Assembly: GCA_019058245.1 (NCBI GenBank)
Contig: JAHPZJ010000006.1
Span: forward strand, 64,001 to 128,000
Source of the DNA: Promethearchaeota archaeon
Lineage (GTDB): Archaea; Asgardarchaeota; Lokiarchaeia; Sigyniarchaeales; SOKP01
DNA length: 64,000 bases
Direction of reading: 5' to 3'
Part shown: in pieces, positions 46,799-63,041 of the stretch
Layout of the letters: each line of letters opens with the position of its first letter
Position numbering within the stretch: the stretch's first letter is position 1
The notes under the pieces: generated by a model
Told to the model about the DNA's origin: nothing
Databases searched by the model: none
The model's input: the letters and a program-made list of their open reading frames with translations, nothing else
Translations under genes and position numbers: made by a program

Positions 46799-47956
46799 CT
46801 ATTTCACACCTCCATATACAGCAAAATAATAGCATTTCCAAATTACGTCAACATATTTAAAACCAATATTATCAAGCCACTTTAGCTGGTTGAAAAGTAC
46901 GGCAGGACAGTCTTCTTGACGATGATCTATGAGAATTCTCTCAATATCATCCATTGAATAATTACTTCTTAAAAAATCAGTCCATTGCTTTACATACATA
47001 TCTTGTAAATAATTATTTGAACCCAGAATATTATCCAAATTATAAAATACTCCTCCTTGATTAAGAGCGTCATAAATTTTTGTATAAAACTTAACTTTAT
47101 CTTCATCAGACCTAAGATGATGTAAGGCTAATGATGATAATATTACATCACACTGAGCTGTAAAAGATAGCATATTAAAATCATCTATAAGAAATTCAAC
47201 ATTGTTAAAGTTTGAAAGCTTTTTTTTAGCTAACTCGACCATATTCTCTGATACATCAATCATAGTTAATTTAGAATTCGGAAAGTGCATTTTTATCAAT
47301 TTTGAGAGATTTCCTGTCCCAGAGCCTAAATCAACTATTTTTATTTGTTGATGTATATCAAATGGTATAGAATTTATCAATGCTATCAGCATTTCATTAT
47401 AATAGGGAACTACTTTGGGGATAAAATCATCATATGCAAATGATATTTCTTCAAATCGAACTCTAATTTTTTCATTTATACTTTTTGTATTATACTTCTC
47501 TAAATACAAAAGTTTAACATTTTCATTCAATTCCTCGGTTTTAAATATATTATATCCCAGTTTCTGATAAAGATATAGATTTTTTTCGCTCTTAAATCCA
47601 GTAAATAATTCAAATCTGTCAGCATAGCTAAAGTTGTTTTCAATCTTTCTAAGAATTAAAGTACCTAACCCTTGATTTTGATATTCTGGATGGACTATTA
47701 ATTTTCCTATGAAGCATGATTCTTTATCTCGATATGCTCTTACCGATCCAATTATTTTATCATTTTTTAAAGCTTTTAGAAATATACTTTTTCTAAACTC
47801 CTCTTTAAGTTCTTCAATTGTCTGATGTAAAGGAGGGATATTGAAATCATTGTAGATTTCTGCTTCGCTTTGATATGCTATTTTTTGAAGTTGAAGAATT
47901 TCATCTAAATCATTTTCTTTAACTGATTTAATTTCAACAGATTTAATTTCACTCAT
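46799..47956 (-). CDS. GNAT acetyltransferase fused to class I SAM methyltransferase (CmoA-like)
   Basis: IVHPEYQNQGLGT, NLYLYQKLGY; VPYY, DLGSGTG, SSLALHHL, QLKWL..IGF. Confidence 0.88.
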   Translation of the reverse strand: MSEIKSVEIKSVKENDLDEILQLQKIAYQSEAEIYNDFNIPPLHQTIEELKEEFRKSIFLKALKNDKIIGSVRAYRDKESCFIGKLIVHPEYQNQGLGTLILRKIENNFSYADRFELFTGFKSEKNLYLYQKLGYNIFKTEELNENVKLLYLEKYNTKSINEKIRVRFEEISFAYDDFIPKVVPYYNEMLIALINSIPFDIHQQIKIVDLGSGTGNLSKLIKMHFPNSKLTMIDVSENMVELAKKKLSNFNNVEFLIDDFNMLSFTAQCDVILSSLALHHLRSDEDKVKFYTKIYDALNQGGVFYNLDNILGSNNYLQDMYVKQWTDFLRSNYSMDDIERILIDHRQEDCPAVLFNQLKWLDNIGFKYVDVIWKCYYFAVYGGVK

Positions 47957-48155
47957 TATTTTTTCTCCTCAAAAATTTTTTCCGATATATCATTTCGATT
48001 ATTTTTTTTTATTTTTTTCTGATATTTTTTTTTTTCACTCATATTCAATATATTTTATGAATTGGATTAGAATTTCTTAAAGAAGTGAAAGATAGTTGGA
48101 ATGATATAAGAATATCTTTAATTTTTAAAAAAAACAGAAATTCTAATAATTAAAC

Positions 48156-48183
48156 CATTGCGCACGTTCTACGCGTGCCAATG
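48156..48183 (-). promoter_or_regulatory. Hairpin enclosing the stop codon of leader 2
   Basis: Minus strand CATTG-GCACG-cgTAGaa-CGTGC-g-CAATG; U8 tract downstream at 48127-48134. Confidence 0.7.
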
Positions 48184-48246
48184 TAATACCCAAAACCAAC
48201 TAATGAAAAATTTTCTTAAGCTTAAGTTTTTTTTAATTGTTGTCAT
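48169..48246 (-). CDS. Trp-rich leader peptide 2 (MTTIKKNLSLRKFFISWFWVLHWHA*)
   Basis: Hand-translated 25-aa uORF with 3 Trp in the last 9 codons; paralogous to the trpD leader. Confidence 0.7.
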   Translation of the reverse strand: MTTIKKNLSLRKFFISWFWVLHWHA

Positions 48247-48295
48247 TTTTCATTCAAAAGGTTTTGTTAATTATACAAATGTAATAATTAATTGA

Positions 48296-48310
48296 TATTT
48301 ATATTTTTTT
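48296..48310 (-). promoter_or_regulatory. BRE/TATA promoter of leader 2
   Basis: AAAAAAATATAAATA on the minus strand, 50 nt before the ATG; identical to the trp promoter element. Confidence 0.65.
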
Positions 48311-49376: not shown

Positions 49377-49970
49377 TTAAAGCTCTAAGAAATTTTTTAA
49401 GATTTGAATGCCGTGTGGCTTCATTTTGATGGATTCGGGGTGGAATTGAAGACCTTCTACGGGATATTGCTTATGTCGAACTCCCATAATCGTACCATCA
49501 TCCGCTGTTGCAGAGATTTTAAGGTTTTGAGGGAGGATATCCCCCTTTGCTGCTAGTGAATGATATCGAATAACCTGTAAAGGATTGGAAACATCTTTTA
49601 ATACTGTTTTTTGGTCGTGAAACACTTTAGATTCTTTACCATGCATAGGGCCTACTTTAGCTCTTCCTACATATTCCACATTTTCATCTTCTCCAAAAGC
49701 TTCGACAATCGCTTGATGACCTAAACAGATCCCCAATATTGGTATTTTGGAGTAGAACTCTTTAATGATTGGAATTACTGTACCCGTATCATATTTAGGA
49801 TGCCCAGGACCAGGTGAGATAATTATCTTATCAGCATTCATTTCTTTTACTTTATCTACTGCAATATGGTTATCCTCAACAATTATTTCAGCGTCTGGTT
49901 GTAATTGACATATATAATTGACCAGATTATACACAAAACTATCATAATTATTAATAAATAGAATTTTCAT
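49377..49970 (-). CDS. trpG: Anthranilate synthase component II
   Basis: NYDSFVYNL, ISPGPGHP, GICLGHQ, RYHSL, QFHPES. Confidence 0.95.
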   Translation of the reverse strand: MKILFINNYDSFVYNLVNYICQLQPDAEIIVEDNHIAVDKVKEMNADKIIISPGPGHPKYDTGTVIPIIKEFYSKIPILGICLGHQAIVEAFGEDENVEYVGRAKVGPMHGKESKVFHDQKTVLKDVSNPLQVIRYHSLAAKGDILPQNLKISATADDGTIMGVRHKQYPVEGLQFHPESIKMKPHGIQILKNFLEL

Positions 49971-51463
49971 TTTTGTCTCGCCTCTGCGATTTTTATTGAT
50001 TTCAATACACTATAGAGTTTATTATAAGTCTCCATATATTCTTCATGAGGTTGACTATCAGCAACAATACCTCCTCCAGCTTGTGCAAAATATGAGCCAT
50101 TTCTTCCAAATAGAGTTCTTATTGCAATAGCAAATGTCATATCGCCATTGAAGCTAAAATACCCGACTCCACCACCATAGGGACCCCTTGACTCTGTTTC
50201 TAATTCTTGAATTAACTCCATAGCACGTTTCTTTGGAGCTCCCGAAAGTGTTCCAGCGGGGAATACACTCTTTAAGACTTGATATCCGTCTAATGGCGTT
50301 TTACTTCTAACTTTACTAACAATATGTTGGACTTTTTGATATTTCTGGACTGCCATTAGTTCAAATGTATCAACAGAACCCGGATATGAGACCTTAGCTA
50401 AGTCGTTCCTTGCTAAATCCACCAGCATTATGTGTTCAGCCTGCTCTTTTGGATCATTAAGCAATTCTTTTTCTAACTTTAAATCTTCCTCGGGTGTCTT
50501 ACCTCTCCTAATCGTACCTGCGATTGGCACTGTGTTAAGAACATTTTTATTCTTGGAAATAAGTGCTTCGGGGCTACTTCCAATGATCTTAATCTTTCCA
50601 AAATTTATATTGTACATATATTGGGAAGGATTAAGCACTCTGAGAACCTCGTAGATCTTCATAGCATCGATTTTACTATCCGTGTATAGCCTTCGGGAAA
50701 TAACTGCTTGTATTATGTCACCCGCGTAAATATGTTCTTTTGTTTTTTCAATCATTCTTGCATGAGCACTTTCACTCGTATTTGAACGGAACGTGGATTC
50801 ATCCACTTCATCTATATCTATTGGAATTTCCTTTTTTACGTCCGATTTATTATTTCTATTAAACAGACTAAGTTGATAACGAATGTCCTTATCTTTAGAA
50901 TAGTCATCGATGCTATTATCAATCATAAATAGGGCGTTTGATGCATGGGAGTAAACCAAAACTTTTGTATAGAGTGCCATCATAATATCTGGAAACTCAC
51001 TCGTGGATTTATATCCTACATATGGAGCCACCACATCATAACCGATGTATCCTAACATCCCACCATAAAAGATATTCCTTGGGAATAATTCCGTAAAAGG
51101 AAGGTTAGAATAAGGAGTGAGACGACTAAGTGTATTAAGAGCTAACATATTATAATCCACATTATCCTTGAAAGGGAGGGGATTATGCGGTCTTTCCTCA
51201 ACTGGATCTTTCGATTCCATATACTCTTTGATAGTCTCACCTCTAGCGCTCGTGATATCGTACATTTTAAATTGATCTTCTTTAATTTCCAGTATAAAAT
51301 CCGGATCTAGAGCAATAAAACTATATAACGTTTCTTTTGTATTCTCTGAAGCAGACTCCAAGAGCGCATGCTTTTTCAAGTCATATTTCTTTACTAAATA
51401 TTTATAAAATTCAAAGATGTTTTCCAATTCTCCAATTTTTTCAATATGAATATCAAATTCCAT
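49967..51463 (-). CDS. trpE: Anthranilate synthase component I
   Basis: LLES, GSSPE, PIAGT, EHIMLVDLARND, FPAGTLSGAPK, RGPYGG. Confidence 0.95.
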   Translation of the reverse strand: MEFDIHIEKIGELENIFEFYKYLVKKYDLKKHALLESASENTKETLYSFIALDPDFILEIKEDQFKMYDITSARGETIKEYMESKDPVEERPHNPLPFKDNVDYNMLALNTLSRLTPYSNLPFTELFPRNIFYGGMLGYIGYDVVAPYVGYKSTSEFPDIMMALYTKVLVYSHASNALFMIDNSIDDYSKDKDIRYQLSLFNRNNKSDVKKEIPIDIDEVDESTFRSNTSESAHARMIEKTKEHIYAGDIIQAVISRRLYTDSKIDAMKIYEVLRVLNPSQYMYNINFGKIKIIGSSPEALISKNKNVLNTVPIAGTIRRGKTPEEDLKLEKELLNDPKEQAEHIMLVDLARNDLAKVSYPGSVDTFELMAVQKYQKVQHIVSKVRSKTPLDGYQVLKSVFPAGTLSGAPKKRAMELIQELETESRGPYGGGVGYFSFNGDMTFAIAIRTLFGRNGSYFAQAGGGIVADSQPHEEYMETYNKLYSVLKSIKIAEARQK

Positions 51464-51498
51464 TTTTTTATCTGTCCTTTTTATTTTTTTGTTTATAT

Positions 51499-52215
51499 TT
51501 ATTTATTTTTAATTCCAAAAGCTCTTGGACATTTAACTCTGCATAGATTACATTTTTGGAGTGTATATCCTTTCTGATGTTTAAAATTCGATATTGGCCT
51601 ACAAAGTGCTTGATTTACCGTTTCTCCATTTAATGCTTGTTGAGGACAAAATTCAATACATATATTACATGAATCCAAACATCCTTCATAAGTGGCAATT
51701 GCATCTGCTTCTAGCTCAATATCTACCAGAACGGCTCCAAGTTGGATCATATTACCATAAATATTATTAATTAAAAGAGTATTTTTTCCAATAACTCCAA
51801 GACCACTAAGATAACCTGCATGTCTTAATGACAAAATTGCTCTTCCATAAGACCTATCTGGTTCCCAATACTCGTATGGGTCATCTGATGGTATGGGGAC
51901 ACATCTTATTCCCAATTCCTCTAAGCTATATAAAATATCAATAGTTAATTTATCAATAATCCTCATAATCATGCTATTTACAAAAGTATATGGAACACAA
52001 TTAACAGCATAATTTGAACTGTTAGGAGTTCTTTTTAAGAATACAACTATTGATTTACATTCTGGAAAAATATCAGTAGGATGAAATCCTTTAGGCGCAT
52101 CTTTAAATCTATCAACTGATGCAATTCCACATAGATCAGCTCCTAAATTATTTATTCTATTCTTAATATAGTTAGAATTAATATTATTGAGTAACTCATT
52201 TTCAGTATTTCTCAC
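51499..52215 (-). CDS. Epoxyqueuosine reductase (QueG)-like Fe-S protein
   Basis: GADLCGIA, LSLRHAGYLSGLG.IGKNTL, CLDSCNICIEFCP, CNLCRVKCP. Confidence 0.8.
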   Translation of the reverse strand: MRNTENELLNNINSNYIKNRINNLGADLCGIASVDRFKDAPKGFHPTDIFPECKSIVVFLKRTPNSSNYAVNCVPYTFVNSMIMRIIDKLTIDILYSLEELGIRCVPIPSDDPYEYWEPDRSYGRAILSLRHAGYLSGLGVIGKNTLLINNIYGNMIQLGAVLVDIELEADAIATYEGCLDSCNICIEFCPQQALNGETVNQALCRPISNFKHQKGYTLQKCNLCRVKCPRAFGIKNK

Positions 52216-52218
52216 TAT

Positions 52219-53049
52219 TCAATTCACCCTCCTTATTGCATTCATAATACTTGAAACAAAATCCTTCATTTCTAATTCCATCTTCTTATGATCATTAAGA
52301 TTTTTTTTAACTATATTTACAATAGCAGAACCTATAATGATTCCATTGGCACCAGCATCAATAATTGCATTAGCATGTTCTGGTTTAGAAATACCAAATC
52401 CAACAAATACGGGGAGAACTTTTTCAGTCTTAAGCTTGATCCGTTTGATAGTATCTTTAGTAATTTGCGCAACAGTATCCCTAATCCCTGTAACACCCAT
52501 AATTGCAATTAAATAAATAAAACCTTTTCCTACTTTCAAGATTTTATCTAATCTCTCCTCTGTTGTGGAAGGAGCAACTAGAAAAATCAAGCAGATATTA
52601 TATTTTTCACATGCCTTCAAAGTCAAATCTGCTTCTTCTATAGGTAAATCTCCAATCACAATTCCATCTACACCGTTCTCTTTAAGATTTTTAAATGTTA
52701 TATCAAGAGATGCTTCTATGGTGTCAGCACCTTGAATTAGAATGTTATAATAAGTTAATACAACTATTGGTTTCTCTGTTTCAGATCTTATAGTCTTTAT
52801 AGCCTTTAAAGCTGTTTTTGTATTTACTCCTGCATTGAAAGCCCTAACATTTGCCTCTTGAATAGTAGGGCCGTCTGCAATTGGATCAGAAAAGGGAATT
52901 CCAATTTCAAGAATATCAGCATATGGTTCTATGATTTTGGCAAGCTTTATAAATTGATCCATATTGGGATCTCCAGCCACTAAGAATGGCATAAATCTTC
53001 TTTCATTATTATTTTTGAACAATTCTAATATTCTATTTGAATCTGTCAT
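52219..53049 (-). CDS. trpA: Tryptophan synthase alpha chain
   Basis: [37 protein letters not shown]. Confidence 0.96.
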
Positions 53050-54263
53050 TTTATGCTGAACTCCATATGTTTTTTAATAATATCAAGATCTTTTGAACCA
53101 GATCCTGAAAGATTAATAATTACGATATCATCTTTTTTGAACATATCTTTATTTTTTTCTAAATAAGCTAAAGCATGAGAGCTTTCCAAAGCTGGGATTA
53201 TTCCTTCAAGTTTAGATAGGTTTTTGAAAGCTTCTAATGTTTCATTATCGGTCGCTTCTCCAACAACTAATCGATTAAGTTGGTGTAAATAACAATGTTC
53301 AGGACCTACCCCTGGATAATCTAATCCCGCACTTATTGAGTGTGTTTCTATTATATTTCCATACTCATTTTGTAAAAGGTATTGCATAGCACCATGCAAA
53401 ACTCCTCTACGTCCTAATCCTAAGGCAATAGAATGTTTATTTGTGTCCCTACCTTCTCCAGCTGCTTCAACTCCAATTAATTGTACATTTGAATTATCAA
53501 TAAAATCATAAAACGCCCCTATGGCATTACTCCCTCCACCTATACAAGCAATTATAGCATCAGGGGGTTTTCCTTCAAGTTCTAAAATCTGTACTTTCAT
53601 TTCTTTCCCTATAATCCTTTGAAATTCTCGAACAATTAATGGATAGGGATGGGGACCTACTACACTCCCCATTAAATAATGATATTCTTTCAAATTGGCA
53701 ATCCAAAATCTAAGACCTTCATTAACAGCATCTTTTAAAGTTCTTGAACCAGACTTAACTGGAATCACTTCGGCACCTAGAATTTGCATTCTATAGACAT
53801 TATAGGCTTGTCTTTCAATATCAATTTCACCCATAAATACTTTAGTTGGCATACCAAAATATGCACCAGCTATAGCAGTTGCAAATCCATGTTGTCCTGC
53901 TCCTGTTTCAGCTACTAATTTCTTTTTTCCCATTTTTTTAGCGAGAAGAGCTTGCCCCATAACATTATTTATTTTATGAGCACCTCCATGGTTAAGATCT
54001 TCTCTTTTTAAATAAACTTTGCAACCAATAAAATCGCTATATCTCTCAGCATAATATAATGGTGTCGGTCTGCCACTATAAAATCTTAATATCCGTTCAA
54101 ATTCCTCAATGAAATTTTCATCATGAATGTATCGGTTAAATGCTTCAGTAAGTTCATTGAGGGCAGGCATTAATATTTCAGGTGCAAACATGCCACCAAA
54201 TTCTCCGAATTTTCCTAATTCGTCTGGATATTTGTCAATATAATCCATTTTTTTCATACTCAT
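53046..54263 (-). CDS. trpB: Tryptophan synthase beta chain (TrpB1 type)
   Basis: [50 protein letters not shown]. Confidence 0.97.
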
Positions 54264-54907
54264 ATATTTTTCTTAATTTCTTTTATTTTATCTAAAAATT
54301 TTTTAATTTTTAAAGGACTTTTAACACCTTTTTTTGATTCCAAAGAACTACTTACATCAATTCCATATGGTTTTATCTTTTTGATTATATCTTCTATATT
54401 ATCGATACTAATTCCTCCTGCCAGAATGATTTTGGTTTCAGAAATATTTTCCATTAATTCCTTAATTATACTAATCTCTAACTTATTTCCATGCCCTTCG
54501 CTGTTATCAATTAGAATTGCAAAGAAGCTACCTTGTGACTCATTGATTTTAGTGATAATCTCTTGTAGATTTGAATGATTTAACTTTAGTGCTAATATTA
54601 TTTTCTCCTTTAATTCTTTTGAAATACTTCCTAATTCCTCTATACTCATATTACTATGAATTTGATAATAGTTTACCTTAATATTGTTTACAATTTTCTT
54701 TAATTCATCAACGGTTCGGGGTTTACTAACCACAACTGTTAGGATATCATTAGATATATTATCAAGAAGATTATTTATTTCTGTTTTCTTCAAGTTCCTT
54801 GGAGAAGAGGGGACATTATAAATAAAACCAACCGCATTAGCCCCATTTTCTGCACAAAGAGAAATTTCTTCTGGTTTTTTTAATCCACAGATCTTTATAT
54901 ACTCCAT
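54260..54907 (-). CDS. trpF: Phosphoribosylanthranilate isomerase
   Basis: IKICGL, GFI...[20 protein letters not shown]. Confidence 0.93.
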
Positions 54908-55701
54908 TAAGAACTTCCTCTTAACTCTTGAATTTTTTCTTTAATATTTTCGGATTGCATTATAGAAGAACCAACTAAGAAAGCATCTACCTTATATGGA
55001 ACAAGAAAGTTGATATCATCTTTAGTAGAAATTCCACTTTCGCTAATCACACAAGTTTTATTCCCAACAATTTCTTTGATTTTTGGTATTAACTCCTTCG
55101 AAGTATTAAGATCTATTAGCATATTATTTAAATTACGATTATTTACACCAATCAACTTGGGAATATGCCCAATTTCGAGTAAAGATTCAATATCTTTTAA
55201 TTCTGATTTATCATGAATTTCTATTAATGGTTCTAGATCATATTGAATTGCCAATTCATATAAATTATTCAAGTTACCAAGTTGATTAATTAACAAGATA
55301 TTAGTGGCTCCAATTTTTTTTGCTAATCGAAGCTGTAATTCATCGAAAACAAAATCCTTCATTAAACAAGGAATTTTAGTAGCATTTACAGCTTCCATTA
55401 GATTTTCAAATGAACCATTAAAATATTTTGGTTCTGTAAGTATGCTAAGTCCAATTACTCCTGCGTTTTCCATTTCTTCTGCAACTTTAGAAACATTTAT
55501 GTTAGATCTTATACTTCCCAGAGAAGGAGAGGAAGGTTTTATTTCCGAGATTATCGAAATTTTTCCTTGTTTACCAATATTCTCACTTAAAGGGATCCTT
55601 GAAGAAGCTTGAAAAGTCTTTGCTAAACTTTCAAACAAATCTATTTGTTTTACCAGTGATTTTTTTCTGCTTGCTAATATTTGATGTAGAATATTGGTCA
55701 T
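54907..55701 (-). CDS. trpC: Indole-3-glycerol phosphate synthase
   Basis: EIKPSSPS, SILTEPKYFNGS, KDF, GVNNRNL, SESGI, LVGSSIM. Confidence 0.95.
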   Translation of the reverse strand: MTNILHQILASRKKSLVKQIDLFESLAKTFQASSRIPLSENIGKQGKISIISEIKPSSPSLGSIRSNINVSKVAEEMENAGVIGLSILTEPKYFNGSFENLMEAVNATKIPCLMKDFVFDELQLRLAKKIGATNILLINQLGNLNNLYELAIQYDLEPLIEIHDKSELKDIESLLEIGHIPKLIGVNNRNLNNMLIDLNTSKELIPKIKEIVGNKTCVISESGISTKDDINFLVPYKVDAFLVGSSIMQSENIKEKIQELRGSS

Positions 55702-55708
55702 TATTTCT

Positions 55709-56764
55709 TCATAATATATTATTTAATTTTTGTTTATCTCCACCAGAAACCTCAATAAAATTCTCGAGTTTTTGAAAAGCTTTGCCTTCTTCTATAGAAT
55801 TTTTTGCCATAGAAATCCCCTCGTCAATGTCTTTTACAATATTAGCGCTAGTAAGAGCTAAGGCAGCATTCATCAAGACAGTATTATACTTAGCTCCTTT
55901 TAATTGATTTTTGAGGATACCTAACGCAATTTTCAGATTCTCATCAAGATTTCCAGCTAATATTTCTTCCACGGTACAATCTGGAAGGTTGAAATCTTTA
56001 TTCGTTAAAGCATAAGATTCAATATTCCCATTTTTAACCTCAGTTATATAATTAATTCCTATAGGTGCTAACTCATCAATTCCATATGAATTATGTACTG
56101 TGAATACATGTTTTCCTCCAAGATTTCCAAGGACTTTTGCCATAACTGGTGCTAAATCTTTTTGGAAAACGCCTAGAGTGTGATAAGGAGCATTTGCAGG
56201 ATTTGTTAAAGGTCCTAATATGTTAAAAACAGTTCTAATTTTTAGTTCCCTCCTTGTTGGCATTGCATGTTTCATTGCAGGATGAAATAAAGGTGCAAAC
56301 ATAAAACCAATACCTACTTGTTCTATACATTTTTTAACCTCTTCTGGGGATAAATCAATTTTTACACCTAACCCTTCTAATAAATCTGCACTCCCACATT
56401 TACTCGTAACTGCTCTATTTCCGTGTTTTGCAACAGGAACGCCAGCACCCGCTACAACTAATGCTGAGATCGTACTTATATTAAAGGTTTTTACTTTATC
56501 TCCTCCAGTACCACATGTATCCAATAATTCTCTATTTATTTGCGGTTCAATTCGATTTGCGAATTCACGCATAATTCGCGCAAAACCTGTGATCTCTTCT
56601 ATAGATTCACCTTTCATATTTAAAGCTGTTAAAAATGCTCCCAATTGGGAAGCAGAAACATTTCCACTCATTATTTCTCTCATAATATTTTCTGCTTCGC
56701 TTGTTGATAAATCAACTTTTCTGATAATTTTATGTAATCCGTTAATTATTTTTTCTTCAAACAT
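55709..56764 (-). CDS. trpD: Anthranilate phosphoribosyltransferase
   Basis: DTCGTGGD..TFNIST, AKHGNR, GSAD, RTVFNILGPLTNP. Confidence 0.96.
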   Translation of the reverse strand: MFEEKIINGLHKIIRKVDLSTSEAENIMREIMSGNVSASQLGAFLTALNMKGESIEEITGFARIMREFANRIEPQINRELLDTCGTGGDKVKTFNISTISALVVAGAGVPVAKHGNRAVTSKCGSADLLEGLGVKIDLSPEEVKKCIEQVGIGFMFAPLFHPAMKHAMPTRRELKIRTVFNILGPLTNPANAPYHTLGVFQKDLAPVMAKVLGNLGGKHVFTVHNSYGIDELAPIGINYITEVKNGNIESYALTNKDFNLPDCTVEEILAGNLDENLKIALGILKNQLKGAKYNTVLMNAALALTSANIVKDIDEGISMAKNSIEEGKAFQKLENFIEVSGGDKQKLNNIL

Positions 56765-56941
56765 TTTTCTGCTTGTTTTTAATTTTTTATTTAGTTTTAT
56801 CTACACATTATTAATGTGTGACTTTACTATATTGGAATTCAATTTAATAAAGCACATATAGAAAATAAGTAAGATGTTTTCAGAAAGGAGGATTAAAGAA
56901 TAGTATAATGTGAACAATAAAATATAATTTAACCTATGTGA

Positions 56942-56961
56942 AGCGCGTTCTTATGCGCGCC
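56942..56961 (-). promoter_or_regulatory. Hairpin enclosing the stop codon of the trp leader
   Basis: Minus strand G-GCGCG-caTAAgaa-CGCGC-T, a GC island in very AT-rich DNA. Confidence 0.72.
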
Positions 56962-57004
56962 AAGACCAATGCCAACGAAAAGGAATTATTTTTTCATTAG
57001 CCAT
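56951..57004 (-). CDS. trpL: trp operon leader peptide (MANEKIIPFRWHWSWRA*)
   Basis: Hand-translated 17-aa uORF with WHWSW, ending about 187 nt upstream of trpD on the same strand. Confidence 0.8.
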   Translation of the reverse strand: MANEKIIPFRWHWSWRA

Positions 57005-57052
57005 TTTTTTAAACCATATTTCATATATCTTGAAAGAATTAAGGATTCTCAC

Positions 57053-57067
57053 TATTTATATTTTTTT
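57053..57067 (-). promoter_or_regulatory. BRE/TATA promoter of the trp operon
   Basis: AAAAAAATATAAATA on the minus strand, 49 nt before the leader ATG. Confidence 0.65.
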
Positions 57068-57226
57068 ATATCTTAGAATTTTAGTAGACTCTTAAAGATA
57101 ATAAAAACCCTCTCTGTTCTCTACATATTAATTATTAAAAAATTAACAAATAGAGTTAATATTAAATTACTGTTATAATTGATTATATTGAAATTGAATT
57201 TTTCTTATATCTCAAATGAGTAGATT

Positions 57227-60085
57227 ATGGAGGAAATTGACCCTAAGAAGTTAACTCCTATGTTAAAACATTGGTATTCAATTCGTAAAAGATTTCCTTC
57301 AGATTATCTCATTGCATATCGCATGGGCGATTTTTATGAATTTTTTTATGATAATGCTGAAAGAATTTCAAAGCTTTTAGGAATAACTCTAACAAAAAGA
57401 GGAGATATTCCCTTAGCAGGGATTCCTCATCATTCTGGTCATAATTATTTTAATAATTTAATGAACCTCGGTGAAACATTAGTCATAGTTGAACAATTAG
57501 AAGATCCTGCTACAGTAAAGGGAAGAATTGTAAAGCGTGGAGTTACTCGAGTGCTCTCACCAGGAACAATTATAGAACCAAACCTGCTAAAATCAAATCA
57601 AAATAATTATATTGCCTCCATGATTAAAGAAAAAAATGGATTTGGTGTTGCTTTTATGGATATATCTACTGGAGAGTTTGTAGCTACTGAAATATCAAAT
57701 AAGAATCAAGATTCACAAGAACAATTATTGAGTTTACTTTCTCAGTATGACCCTGTAGAATTAATTATACCTCTTGATCTAAAAAATGATGAGCGACTCT
57801 TTATTTTATTGACAGATTTAACTAAAGCGATCATTAAATCATATGATGAGCATGTTTTTTTATACGAGGAGGCCTATACATTAATTTCCCGTCATTTTAA
57901 AGTTACGAATTTAGAAAGTTTTGCCTTAGAAGATAAACCCATAGCCATTCAAGCCGCGGGAGGCCTATTAGCATTTTTAAAAGATACCCAACGAGATGTG
58001 ATTCCAAATATCTTTAAAGTCAATGTTATTAAAGAAGAAAACGTACTCCACTTAGACTATATTACACAGAGGAATTTAGAGTTAATTAATTCACTTTGGG
58101 AAAGAGGTAAGGATACCACGCTATATTCTATTTTTAACCACACTTGTACTCCAATGGGTGCTCGTTTAATAAAGAAATTCATCCTCCAACCTCTTACAGA
58201 TATTAAAGAAATTAATCAACGATTAAAAATCGTCCAAAAGTTTAAAGACGATATTTTTCTAAGATCTGATCTAAGGGAGGAATTAGGTGTTATTGGTGAT
58301 TTAGAAAGATTTATTAATAGAATTACTTATGCGGGTCGTACTAATGCTCGAGATCTAATAAATATTAGAAATTCTTTAGAGAAAATTCCAATAATCAAGC
58401 AATTATTAGAGAAGGCTGATATCCCGGAAATTTCAAATTTTCTTGAAAAGATTAATACTTTCAATGAAATCAAAGAATTAATAAATATTTCAATTAAGGA
58501 TAATCCCCCTACTACTATAAAAGAGGGCAATATCATTAAAAATGGTTTCAATAATGAATTAGATGAGCTCAGAGATATAGTACAGAATGGAAAGAAATAT
58601 ATTCTGGACTATGAAGGAGAACAGAAGAAAAAGTGGAATTTAACGACAGGTTTAAAAGTTGGATATAATAATATACTAGGTTATTATATCGAAATAACAT
58701 TAAAAACTCTAAATATTATAAAAACCGTTCCTGAAGAGTATAATGAAAGAGCAACCCTTAAGAATGCAAAAAGATATACTACAAAACGATTAAAAGAACT
58801 TGAAGAGAAAATTTTGAGTGCAGAAGAAAAAATCAACGATTTAGAATATGAGATATTTAATACTATTCGTGAAAAAGTTGAAATAGAAACAAAAAATATT
58901 CTTGAGACTGCCAAAAGTATTGCTGCTATTGATGTACTTACTTGTTTTGCTGAAATTGCAGAAATATATAACTATTCAAGACCAATTATCAATCATGAAA
59001 ATAAAATAATTATAAAAGATGGTAGACATCCCGTTATTGAACAAATAAACTTAGATGAGCAATTTATCCCTAATGATTGTTATTTAGATAATGATAATGA
59101 CCAACTATTAATTATTACTGGCCCAAATATGGCTGGCAAAAGTACATTTTTAAGACAAGTAGCTTTAATCTGTATAATTGCACAAATGGGATGTTTTGTT
59201 CCAGCAAAATCTGCTACAATCGGAATAATTGACCAAATTTTTACCCGAATAGGAGCCTCTGATGATCTTGCCAGAAAATTAAGTACTTTTATGATTGAAA
59301 TGACTGAAACTGCTAAAATTCTAAATTATGCTACACCAAAAAGTATAGTCATCATAGATGAATTAGGGAGGGGAACAAGTACTAGTGATGGGCAAAGTAT
59401 AGCAATGGCAACTCTTGAGAAATTACATGAGCTAAAAGTAAAGACTCTATTCAGTACCCATTATCATCAATTAACAGAACTTAATTTACCAGGAGTAAAA
59501 AATTATCATTTAGACATTATCGAAAATGATGATGGGAGTATCAATTTTGTAAGGACATTAAAGCAAGGAAGTACAGATAAATCTTATGGTATTCATGTTG
59601 CAAAACTAGCAGGAATTCCTGATGATGTGATAATAAGAGCTTTTGAAATTCTTGAACAAATTGAAGAAAAAGATCCTTTTAGGACAGCAATTAGACAAAA
59701 TGGAGAATTGGCTTCATCAAGTAAATACTATGATAAAATTATTGATGAAAAAAAAGTTGAGTTAGAAAATCTTAATCAAGAACTTAAAGCAATAAGGGCT
59801 TCATTAAACGAATGTATTGAAGATCTAAACCAAAATCAAAAAGAATTATCAAAAAAACAGAATGAAATCAAAGAGATTGAACTGAAAAAAGCAAAAATTT
59901 CTGAAAGTAAAACTCCAAAAAAGAAAAAATATGTACAGACAAGTTTATTCGAACCATTAAAGAATACAGAACAAGTAAACGATCTAGTTCATTTTATTAA
60001 GGAAATTATTATAAATTCTGAAAATCCAAGTAAAATAAAAGAACAATTAGATGAATTAATAAAAAAATTAAAAAAACTCAGCTAA
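57227..60085 (+). CDS. mutS: DNA mismatch repair protein MutS (MutS1)
   Basis: LTPM, RMGDFYEFF, GRHPVIE, TGPNMAGKSTFLRQ, STFMIEM, DELGRGT, SYGIHVAKLAG. Confidence 0.96.
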   Translation: MEEIDPKKLTPMLKHWYSIRKRFPSDYLIAYRMGDFYEFFYDNAERISKLLGITLTKRGDIPLAGIPHHSGHNYFNNLMNLGETLVIVEQLEDPATVKGRIVKRGVTRVLSPGTIIEPNLLKSNQNNYIASMIKEKNGFGVAFMDISTGEFVATEISNKNQDSQEQLLSLLSQYDPVELIIPLDLKNDERLFILLTDLTKAIIKSYDEHVFLYEEAYTLISRHFKVTNLESFALEDKPIAIQAAGGLLAFLKDTQRDVIPNIFKVNVIKEENVLHLDYITQRNLELINSLWERGKDTTLYSIFNHTCTPMGARLIKKFILQPLTDIKEINQRLKIVQKFKDDIFLRSDLREELGVIGDLERFINRITYAGRTNARDLINIRNSLEKIPIIKQLLEKADIPEISNFLEKINTFNEIKELINISIKDNPPTTIKEGNIIKNGFNNELDELRDIVQNGKKYILDYEGEQKKKWNLTTGLKVGYNNILGYYIEITLKTLNIIKTVPEEYNERATLKNAKRYTTKRLKELEEKILSAEEKINDLEYEIFNTIREKVEIETKNILETAKSIAAIDVLTCFAEIAEIYNYSRPIINHENKIIIKDGRHPVIEQINLDEQFIPNDCYLDNDNDQLLIITGPNMAGKSTFLRQVALICIIAQMGCFVPAKSATIGIIDQIFTRIGASDDLARKLSTFMIEMTETAKILNYATPKSIVIIDELGRGTSTSDGQSIAMATLEKLHELKVKTLFSTHYHQLTELNLPGVKNYHLDIIENDDGSINFVRTLKQGSTDKSYGIHVAKLAGIPDDVIIRAFEILEQIEEKDPFRTAIRQNGELASSSKYYDKIIDEKKVELENLNQELKAIRASLNECIEDLNQNQKELSKKQNEIKEIELKKAKISESKTPKKKKYVQTSLFEPLKNTEQVNDLVHFIKEIIINSENPSKIKEQLDELIKKLKKLS

Positions 60086-61017
60086 GGAATTACAACGGGA
60101 ATTATAAAAACTATTATAGTTAAATAAATTTCATAAATACTTATCGCTGACCACAATAATATCCGAATATAATTTTTTCTTTTCTCAATTTTTATATTTT
60201 CTATAATTATTATGGCTAATAATCCTATAAACATTAAATGAGAAGGTTGAACTGCTTTCCACATAAATGAATCAAAAAAGAAAATACCATTTATTTCTTC
60301 ATCTCTATGTCCCCAATTCTCAATCATTTGAAAGAAATAATCTGGAAAAATTAGATATGGAATACAGAGAATTATAAGAGGGATTAAAAAATAGAAAATC
60401 TCCTTCCACTTTATTTTTTTTATTATTAATATAACTGGAAGAAATAAAACGGCCGTTATTTTAAATGTTGCAAGTGCAAAAAAAATTCCTGATAACCATT
60501 TTTTATCCTCTTCTAGAAAACGATAAGAATTGAATAAGAGAAAGACAATAATAAAGTTAACATTATTATAATAAGCATCTATAGTATAAGCGATAGTAGC
60601 AAAGATATAAAAAATTAGTAAATCTTTTTTATTTTTAAAAAATTTAGGGGCTTCCTTTATAACATAGATACATAAAATTAAACGTAGTATATCCCAAATA
60701 TAAATCATTATTATTAGATTACTTGGATTTAAATAAATTGGAAGGTAAATTGGAGAGAAGAGAAAATACCAGAAATAAAGATAATAAGGTGGCCAATCAG
60801 ATATAGAAACATCATTATAAAAATTAATCAAACCATTATCCATACCTTCTATAAATATCTTAAAATCAATATCTTTTGTTTCACTAACCCATTCTGATAT
60901 ATCGAGAAAAAAGATTCTTATTATTATTTGAATTATCGTAATAATTATAAAAAAGCTGATAAAATATAAAGGAATTGAAGATTTTTCTTTAAATATCTCT
61001 GTAGTTTGATTACTCAT
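60082..61017 (-). CDS. Polytopic membrane protein, GT-C/GT87 (DUF2029)-like
   Basis: Multiple TM segments; DF..F, NVNFII, GIFFALATFK. Confidence 0.6.
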   Translation of the reverse strand: MSNQTTEIFKEKSSIPLYFISFFIIITIIQIIIRIFFLDISEWVSETKDIDFKIFIEGMDNGLINFYNDVSISDWPPYYLYFWYFLFSPIYLPIYLNPSNLIIMIYIWDILRLILCIYVIKEAPKFFKNKKDLLIFYIFATIAYTIDAYYNNVNFIIVFLLFNSYRFLEEDKKWLSGIFFALATFKITAVLFLPVILIIKKIKWKEIFYFLIPLIILCIPYLIFPDYFFQMIENWGHRDEEINGIFFFDSFMWKAVQPSHLMFIGLLAIIIIENIKIEKRKNYIRILLWSAISIYEIYLTIIVFIIPVVIP

Positions 61018-61187
61018 AATAGAATTTTAGTATATTTATTATAGAGTATTAAACGAGATATAAAAGACTTACTTCCCACCATAATTTATTTAAACTTTAA
61101 TAGTGTATTATTTTAAATTTGATTGTCATGAGAAATTTATTAGCTAATAAAATTATCTTAACATTGGAAAAAATTTTTAGATGAATA

Positions 61188-63041
61188 GTGAAAGTAAGAA
61201 AAATTAAAAAAATTCTTGAAGCGGATAAAATAGCTGCTGGAGAAGTAGTTGACAGACCGGCCAATGTTGTAAAAGAACTTGTTGAAAATAGCATCGATGC
61301 AAATGCTTCGGAAATAAGAATTATTGTTAGGAACGCTGGAAAGTCTTTAATTCATGTAATTGATGATGGAATTGGTATCCCCTCTGAGGATATAAAAATT
61401 GCTTTTGAAAGACATACTAGTAGTAAAATCAGAAGTATTCAAGATTTAGAAAATCTTTCTACATTAGGATTTAGAGGAGAAGCCCTCGCTAGTATAGCCG
61501 CAGTAAGTAAAGTTGAAATTATATCTCGAGTTGAAGACGAAGAGAAAGGAGTGCAACTAATTATCGAGGGGGGAAAAATTGTAGATAAAAAGAGAATTTC
61601 CTGCCCTGTTGGAACTAACATTCAAGTTAAAAATTTATTTTATAATTTACCAGCAAGGCAAAAGTTTCTTAAAACTGATGCTACAGAATTAGGGCACATT
61701 ACGGATATAGTGCAAAGATATTCCTTAGCATATCCCAATCTTCATTTTATATATCATCATAATGAGCTAGATATCCTCAATTGTCCAGCTTCGAATGATT
61801 TGAAAACAATCGTGTTCCATGTCTATGGAAAACAAATTGCTAAATTTTCTGAACAAATTGATTTTGAAGAAAAAAATCCTTATTTTAAAGTAAATGGATT
61901 ATTGGGGCACCCAGAAATATCTAAGAAAACCCGAACTTATTCAAGTCTATTCATTAATCATCGCTATGTGATAAGTGATTTGTTATCAAGAGCAATCCAA
62001 GAATCCTATAAGGGAACACTCATGGTGGGTAAATATCCATTTTATATACTCAATATTAATTTGGATCCTTCCGTAATTGATTTCAATGTTCATCCAAAAA
62101 AACTTCATGTTAGATTCGAAAGAGAAGAATATGTCTATAATAAAGTATATAATATAATTAGAAATTTTGTTGAAGATAAATTTATAGTAAAGGAAGCAAA
62201 ATATATCTCAACAGAATTACATGATTTCGTACCAAAGGAAGAAAAATTATTAGAAGCAAAAAAAGAAATATCAGAGGTTAAATTTAAGCAGGAAAAAATA
62301 AATCAGGAAAAAGTCTTAAAAACTGAAGAAAAAATACAATTAAGCTTAGAGGATCAGATAGTTTCAGATAAACCAATCGAAAAACTTCCACTTGAAACTC
62401 TACTAAGGGAAAAATACATAATTTCCGAGAATTTTCCCAAATTACGATTAATTTCTCACACAGGTCAATTAAGCAATAAAACTTATGTAGTTTTAGAAGG
62501 AATTAATGAAAATAATGAAGAAGGACTATTTATCTTAGATCAACACGCTGCCTCTGAGAGGATAATGAAAGAAAAATTCATAGATGCTTTTAAAACCTCA
62601 AAAATGAATAGACAAAAATTAATTTCTCCTTTAAAAATTGAGGTATCTCCAAGTGAAAAAATATTTTTAGAGTCTAATTTATTGGAAATTAGGAAACTAG
62701 GATTTGATTTCCAGCGATTCGGAGGGACTACCTTTATTTTAAGAGAAATTCCAACCGTTATGGGAAAAGTCCCCAAATTAAATATTATAAAAGAAATTAT
62801 TAGTGATATAACTGAAATTGGTAAAGATAAGAGTTTTTCAGAAGTAACAGAAGAGATTATTAACTATTTATCCTGTCATAAAAGCATTAGAGGTGGTGAT
62901 AATTTATCTCTAAAAGACATAAGAAATTTATTAATTGACTTAGGAAAATGTAAAGATTCATATCATTGTGCTCATGGAAGACCCACGATAAGATTCTTCT
63001 CTTATAAAGAATTAGATAAATTATTTAAAAGAATAGTATAA
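61188..63041 (+). CDS. mutL: DNA mismatch repair protein MutL (endonuclease type)
   Basis: IAAGEVV, VKELVENSIDA, GFRGEALASI, DFNVHP, DQHAASER, SCH, CAHGRP. Confidence 0.96.
   Translation: MKVRKIKKILEADKIAAGEVVDRPANVVKELVENSIDANASEIRIIVRNAGKSLIHVIDDGIGIPSEDIKIAFERHTSSKIRSIQDLENLSTLGFRGEALASIAAVSKVEIISRVEDEEKGVQLIIEGGKIVDKKRISCPVGTNIQVKNLFYNLPARQKFLKTDATELGHITDIVQRYSLAYPNLHFIYHHNELDILNCPASNDLKTIVFHVYGKQIAKFSEQIDFEEKNPYFKVNGLLGHPEISKKTRTYSSLFINHRYVISDLLSRAIQESYKGTLMVGKYPFYILNINLDPSVIDFNVHPKKLHVRFEREEYVYNKVYNIIRNFVEDKFIVKEAKYISTELHDFVPKEEKLLEAKKEISEVKFKQEKINQEKVLKTEEKIQLSLEDQIVSDKPIEKLPLETLLREKYIISENFPKLRLISHTGQLSNKTYVVLEGINENNEEGLFILDQHAASERIMKEKFIDAFKTSKMNRQKLISPLKIEVSPSEKIFLESNLLEIRKLGFDFQRFGGTTFILREIPTVMGKVPKLNIIKEIISDITEIGKDKSFSEVTEEIINYLSCHKSIRGGDNLSLKDIRNLLIDLGKCKDSYHCAHGRPTIRFFSYKELDKLFKRIV

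Follow-up and report, generated by a model that had tools for sequence, protein, structure and literature searches.

A conserved tryptophan-codon leader peptide ahead of the trp operon in Promethearchaeia, with cognate leaders at other amino-acid loci

The window, meaning the whole 64,000-nucleotide stretch of DNA that was analysed, comes from a Promethearchaeia (Lokiarchaeia) genome, and its minus strand carries a trp operon headed by trpD and preceded by a short upstream open reading frame (uORF) with clustered tryptophan codons (Table 1). The nearest TrpD proteins are 66-97% identical and belong mostly to Promethearchaeota/Promethearchaeia records. The seven Trp enzymes of the operon contain a single Trp residue in total and could therefore still be made when tryptophan is scarce. 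A QueG-like 4Fe-4S gene (52215-51499, minus strand) is inserted between trpA and trpE. The divergent neighbour of the operon is mutS: bacterial-type mutS1 and mutL (57227-63041, plus strand), separated from each other by a membrane gene on the opposite strand, share their intergenic region with the trp promoter.

An earlier note on this DNA, made from the letters alone, had described a TATA element followed by a 17-codon uORF with three TGG codons and a stop codon in the loop of a GC hairpin, and we find these features as described. The Trp codons occupy positions 11, 13 and 15 (56974-72, 56968-66 and 56962-60), and the hairpin, here called HP1, has arms of 6 bp. The Shine-Dalgarno (SD) sequence of the uORF is weak. 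The promoter would place the transcription start near 57030, about 25 nt ahead of the uORF ATG; across the family a TATA match lies 49-63 nt ahead of this ATG in 18 of 21 leaders. Two helices absent from the earlier account turned out to be the best-covarying ones: P0, a 16-bp duplex that encloses the whole uORF and is predicted to mask its ribosome-binding region, and HP2, shortly ahead of trpD. The spacer between uORF and trpD spans 186 nt, and the earlier claim that it is G-poor and U/C-rich over about 180 nt stands for the first property (17 G, G-poor throughout), while the U/C-rich stretch covers only about 75 nt (56930-56856: 51% U, 2 G) and is followed by HP2 and then an A-rich end.

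Table 1. Features of the trp leader locus, of a second leader in the window and of leaders elsewhere in the same genome (G000).
Feature	Position	Strand	Remarks
A-rich BRE-like run	57069-57061	minus	promoter part
TATA box	57060-57053	minus	directly behind the A-rich BRE-like run
Promoter overall	57053..57069	minus	BRE-like run and TATA box
Helix P0, 5' strand	57009..57024	minus	overlaps uORF ribosome-binding region; 57024-57009 pairs with 56932-56917
Leader uORF	57004-56951	minus	17 codons, ends W-R-A-stop
Hairpin HP1	56942..56961	minus	arms 56961-56956 and 56947-56942; 5' arm = last Trp and Arg codons, stop codon in loop
Helix P0, 3' strand	56917..56932	minus	follows the stop hairpin
Unstructured U/C-rich, G-poor tract	56859..56913	minus	candidate aCPSF1/FttA loading or cleavage zone
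Hairpin HP2	56814..56858	minus	~50 nt ahead of trpD; conserved apex
trp operon	49377..56764	minus	trpD (start at 56764), trpC, trpF, trpB, trpA, QueG-like 4Fe-4S gene, trpE, trpG
Second Trp leader, sister subtype	48067..48303	minus	TATA 48303-48296; 25-codon uORF 48246-48169; long inverted repeat 48146-48136 / 48077-48067
GNAT acetyltransferase-methyltransferase fusion gene	46799..47956	minus	downstream of second leader
Leu leader before leuA	L174:616-717 region (G000:C10:40915-41016)		
His leader before hisIE	G000:C30:141160-141324		
Arg leader before argJ	G000:C30:122505-122591		
Ile leader before ileS	G000:C31:10547-10621		

Such uORFs are rare in this genome. An intergenic uORF candidate was found for 1147 genes; for 12 of them its last ten residues include at least two Trp and for three at least three, two of these three lying within the window. 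The feature is widely kept in related genomes. trpD is present in 34 of the 154 genomes of the order, and a Trp-rich uORF stands ahead of it in 30 of the 34, which bears out the earlier expectation of conserved Trp-rich uORFs upstream of trp operons; the genomes are related, so these counts are not independent events. In one further genome of the order a Trp leader precedes a separated trpE, and in the remaining three the contig extends only about 8, 270 and 409 nt upstream. Outside the order, Trp leaders also precede trpD-first operons, among them those of a Helarchaeota genome and of a cluster named Wukongarchaeota. No Trp-rich uORF was found ahead of trpE-first operons in the other Asgard groups, a Jordarchaeales genome among them, nor at the Bathyarchaeia, Hadarchaeota and bacterial loci with the nearest TrpD, some of these loci lacking full upstream DNA. 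In L159 a stretch rich in Trp near trpE was left out of the count because it overlaps the likely gene start.

What is kept in the leaders is a codon pattern. In the last 30 nt before the stop of 33 leaders, 112 TGG triplets are in frame and a single one is out of frame; the W-x-W-x-W pattern lies 1-4 codons ahead of the stop, and a C-terminal W-x-W-x-W-R/H is retained across families. Nearly every copy has a start codon in frame and an open frame, while the N-terminus, the residues between the Trp codons and the length (13-58 codons) vary.

The RNA structure is conserved too, to differing degrees. HP1, P0 and HP2 all recur in the leader subtype of the window. Over 31 sequences, 7 of 11 P0 pairs have changed on both sides, and HP2 displays compensatory changes, including one pair with 13 two-sided changes. 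For the whole structure we counted 52 two-sided cells against 21.5 +/- 4.4 in shuffles, and 86% of cells were paired in register against 33-50% in slid registers, both figures being inflated by relatedness. Covariation of the stop hairpin, which the earlier note had proposed as a check, came out divided: HP1 pairing is kept in 88-92% of cells, and no two-sided change occurs in a single register. Its own arms pair at -9.8 kcal/mol against -8.1 for swapped arms, and HP1 alone outscores versions with a shuffled 3' arm in only 7 of 33 leaders. In the sister subtype the 5' UTR pairs with the first Trp codon and a long stem stands behind HP1. We rejected a pairing between the post-stop arm and the HP2 arms, as the two do not covary. 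Searches at six leader loci gave no Rfam family match near the gathering score.

All intergenic uORFs of this genome were ranked blind to the next gene. The top rank went to a Leu run ahead of leuA-C-D-B, and the same scan gave His-, Arg- and Ile-rich uORFs ahead of hisIE-G-D, argJ and ileS. These leaders are themselves conserved: Leu leaders at 30/30 of the closest leuA loci and 13 more, including Ca. Lokiarchaeum ossiferum, His leaders at 16/16 hisIE-first loci, Ile leaders at 30/30 ileS loci and Arg leaders at about 9 of 12 argJ loci. All four kinds have a long hairpin beginning a few bases past the stop. In Leu and Ile leaders the cognate codon is repeated in a near-homopolymer run; the codons of Arg leaders are mostly of the CGN type, a minority in the genome, and Arg and His leaders retain some upstream residues. 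For the Ile leaders a switch is predicted in which the 5' UTR moves from an in-ORF to a downstream partner when the Ile codons are covered; across L280-L309 an invariant 9-bp pairing joins the SD region of the Ile uORF (ATG-13..-5) to the loop of the post-stop hairpin (stop+41..+49). The ileS frame behind this leader (G000:C31 near 10375, L280 and several of L281-L307) has an SD-like sequence followed by no ATG, GTG or TTG at the expected place; in many members of the genus ATT or ATA occupies that position, a sign that ileS, a gene with an Ile leader, may initiate on an isoleucine codon.

A short Met/Thr-rich uORF (L178, G000:C22:44086-44130) before an ACT-hom-thrC operon, with genes for an ACT-domain protein, homoserine dehydrogenase and threonine synthase, was not counted, being kept only in about six close relatives. 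Directly behind a chorismate mutase/prephenate dehydratase gene's upstream neighbours no leader of this type came up either: the gene (G000:C12:790-5174, minus strand) follows two phenylalanyl-tRNA synthetase subunit-like genes directly, and the uORF scan of this genome surfaced no Phe-rich leader.

The Trp leader follows trp genes beyond trpD. A sequence-only model built from 22 leaders matches 105 of the 135 genomes of the family, many of them without trpD, and in 39 further matches with a downstream gene that gene is trpB2 (28), trpE (5), trpA (4) or a GNAT-methyltransferase gene (2). The second leader of the window belongs to the sister subtype, which elsewhere stands ahead of trpE or trpA, and its pairing with the GNAT-methyltransferase gene recurs in G024, G087, G074 and G100; this gene may truly belong to the Trp regulon, or it may have inherited its leader by rearrangement. 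Ca. L. ossiferum (G042) has a leader ahead of trpD and an 84% identical copy ahead of trpB2. Its trp leader region was found as contigs in four metatranscriptome runs of one study; in three of these runs one contig reaches from inside the uORF into trpD, leaving the promoter side uncovered, and such contigs show neither ends, strand nor level and do not bear on termination. The second leader copy came to light through them.

We then asked of the predicted structures how a ribosome on the uORF would change them, using equilibrium folding with a footprint of 17 nt upstream and 13 nt downstream of the A site blocked. In the window leader, blocking any Trp codon or the stop affects HP1 only, which is lost or kept, and P0 persists. 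A stall at the second or third Trp codon abolishes HP1, and a stall at the first leaves its inner stem intact. Within this ribosome-blocked equilibrium folding the Trp leaders yield no 2:3 antiterminator and 3:4 terminator pair, in line with the earlier observation that a classical terminator switch is absent, and a sigma-70/terminator scan returned nothing above chance and no terminator-like site. Among the few Trp leaders folded in this way, no ribosome-dependent masking of the trpD SD or start is predicted, and in the distant group (n=7) accessibility of the trpD start is 0.41-0.42 across ribosome states. The leader-trpD spacer ranges from 49 to 505 nt, about tenfold. In several genomes it contains a conserved small gene of 80-99 aa (for example L039:1236-1481, plus strand; also L033, L034, L035, L036 and L041), which had no Pfam or Atlas match; it is absent from G000, where the trpD start resembles the start of the small gene. 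Because spacers vary this much, some with an inserted gene, and because accessibility of the trpD start does not depend on ribosome state, an output at the level of the transcript is favoured.

The composition of the spacer suggests a candidate for this output. The U/C-rich tract lies 40-95 nt past the uORF stop and is single-stranded in all ribosome states (folds to stop+100). After the stop, Trp leaders have a U-over-A skew of 0.22-0.29, against 0.00-0.03 in other intergenic DNA, and the family mean of 2.6 U4 tracts per 75 nt is a modest excess over a background of 1.5-1.8. The distant leaders L147, L155, L151 and L153 have long U runs close behind the hairpin, with 4-8 U4 tracts. Leu and His leaders are without U enrichment after the stop, so one output may not fit all leaders. 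The nuclease aCPSF1 is encoded in this genome (TIGR03675 above its cut-off at G000:C27), and it is universal in archaea, hence not discriminating. The aCPSF1 of Lokiarchaeota functions in Methanococcus maripaludis, where it reads U4 tracts in vivo, and efficient binding required two U4 tracts within a short RNA (PMC8716108). The earlier suggestion of factor-dependent termination by aCPSF1/FttA is plausible, the gene being present and the tract single-stranded, though the window leader has only two isolated U4 tracts, about the ordinary intergenic number in this genome, one inside the 3' strand of P0 and the other near 56865.

Taken together, the conservation of the Trp codons, the association of the leader with trp genes, the cognate leaders at four other loci and the precedent of bacterial attenuators indicate that a ribosome translating the uORF very probably senses charged tRNA-Trp, as the earlier note had proposed. 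Codon-based sensing is supported because the leaders before leuA, hisIE, ileS and argJ are cognate as well, so that five unrelated leaders are each rich in the codon that matches the product of the genes behind them, as sensing of charged tRNA would predict. For the output our confidence is lower, and we give about an even chance to an attenuator with a factor-dependent output, in which aCPSF1/FttA terminates transcription on the exposed U/C-rich tract after ribosome release. A ribosome would engage the leader RNA as it is being made, probably during a pause of RNA polymerase past HP1. With plentiful Trp it would pass the three TGG codons, terminate and be recycled; HP1 and P0 would then fold, P0 would hide the ribosome-binding region of the uORF so that no second ribosome loads, and polymerase crossing the unstructured tract without a trailing ribosome would be exposed to cleavage and termination by aCPSF1/FttA. 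With scarce Trp the ribosome stalled on TGG would stay on the RNA and bar aCPSF1/FttA from the Spt5-polymerase complex, and transcription would continue into trpD. HP2 is a candidate pause, processing or protein site. Steric exclusion between ribosome and FttA on Spt5 has been put forward as a hypothesis only (PMC11616081, PMC8116511). Against this reading, the tract lies beyond the footprint of a stalled ribosome, so protection would need a long-range coupling that is so far hypothetical in archaea; the U4 tracts of the window leader are some 55 nt apart, and U4 counts are only modestly above background. Coupling of transcription and translation is itself called into question because in sediment Lokiarchaeota cells the ribosomes lie spatially apart from the DNA (PMC8776820).

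The same sensing could be joined to other outputs. HP1 might act as a one-hairpin intrinsic switch, promoting release at the U-rich RNA behind it as a terminator or pause hairpin, with the stalled ribosome covering its 5' arm and no protein factor needed. Hairpins can enhance archaeal U-tract termination (PMC13675443), the loss of HP1 on stalling at the second or third Trp codon is what such a switch would use, and the distant leaders with U runs close behind the hairpin fit it better. In the window, however, HP1 has only 6 bp and the next U4 tract is about 20 nt off, inside P0; with the inner stem surviving a stall at the first codon and the lack of any terminator-like site, this reading appears unlikely to us. 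We judge it similarly improbable that the output is post-transcriptional, with ribosome state setting mRNA cleavage in the U/C tract and decay, or translation of the first gene, and no coupling to polymerase. That aCPSF1 is a ribonuclease and that DNA and ribosomes are apart in some Lokiarchaeota cells (PMC8776820) would suit it, as would two traits of Leu leaders: the post-stop segment of L260 can pair with the SD of the next gene when the ribosome is at the stop, and start-site accessibility rises slightly on stalling, from 0.47 to 0.60-0.65. The start accessibility of Trp leaders, by contrast, has no consistent dependence on ribosome position, and spacer length varies tenfold.

Sensing by something other than codons has far less in its favour. 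The retained C-terminal W-x-W-x-W-R/H, and the upstream residues kept in Arg and His leaders, could point to a nascent peptide that, like TnaC, detects free tryptophan from within the exit tunnel, or to a small protein acting in trans. Yet the N-terminus, the inter-Trp residues and the length vary freely, Leu and Ile leaders are near-homopolymer cognate runs, and a stall at high Trp would require the opposite wiring, which leaves this reading little probability. Least credible of all is an untranslated chance ORF inside a conserved RNA or DNA element that binds a protein or tRNA: the SD is weak and translation of the uORF is read from sequence, but the strict framing of TGG, the retention of an in-frame start and an open frame by almost all copies, and the match of cognate codons at five different amino-acid loci speak strongly against it.

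Leader-peptide attenuation is textbook bacterial control, and in the literature searched, which covers subscription journals thinly, we found no report of it in archaea. Finding a conserved leader system for several amino acids in Asgard archaea, the closest lineage to eukaryotes, takes attenuation into a second domain, and as Ca. L. ossiferum is a cultured carrier of the leaders, the system can be tested in culture. As a wider and tentative proposal, somewhat short of an even chance, leader peptides may govern amino-acid biosynthesis throughout the genomes of Promethearchaeia (Trp, Leu, His, Arg, Ile); at the Trp leader a stalled ribosome and the CPSF73-like terminator aCPSF1/FttA would compete for the elongating polymerase, and no terminator switch in the RNA would be needed. 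Control of archaeal trp operons described so far is of another kind: TrpY in Methanothermobacter and Tar/TK0271 in Thermococcus give Trp-responsive control at the transcript level (PMC6737238). These are DNA-binding proteins acting at initiation, whereas the element here is a transcribed leader, and no match to the TRP-box hexamer consensus was found in locus L001. Xie and Reeve (2005) reportedly suggested that tRNA-Trp is sensed through codon 2 of trpY, an arrangement different from a leader peptide ahead of an operon.

The closest counterparts of the sensor are enterobacterial: trpL (Rfam Trp_leader), hisL, leuL, ilvL and pheL likewise place a short uORF with cognate codons clustered near its end ahead of a biosynthetic operon, and likewise form a set for several amino acids and a synthetase gene. 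With the trpL type the Trp leader shares a 1:2-like hairpin over the control codons, namely HP1 with its conserved pairing and weak covariation. In E. coli trpL the leader's own ribosome-binding site is reported to pair with a distal segment, as P0 does here. Unlike the trpL type, the leader has an archaeal TATA promoter and alternating W-x-W codons, and in place of a predicted 2:3 antiterminator or a 3:4 hairpin with a U run come a long tract free of structure and a further conserved hairpin. The leader does not belong to the classical attenuator family, since no switch pair was found and Rfam has no match. The start masking of translational attenuators (ermC/cat type) was not seen in the small number of Trp leaders, with isolated cases among Leu leaders. 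In Rho-dependent leaders such as E. coli tnaC and Salmonella mgtL, the position of the ribosome on the uORF governs factor access to an unstructured pyrimidine-rich spacer; TnaC senses free Trp via its peptide and turns on a catabolic operon. Factor access to a pyrimidine-rich spacer would be common to both, with the nuclease aCPSF1/FttA as the candidate factor here, archaea being, to our knowledge, without Rho. The leader is real and conserved, and it represents a known type of sensor in a new domain: by analogy, its sensor resembles trpL, hisL, leuL and ilvL, and its output perhaps that of the Rho-dependent leaders.
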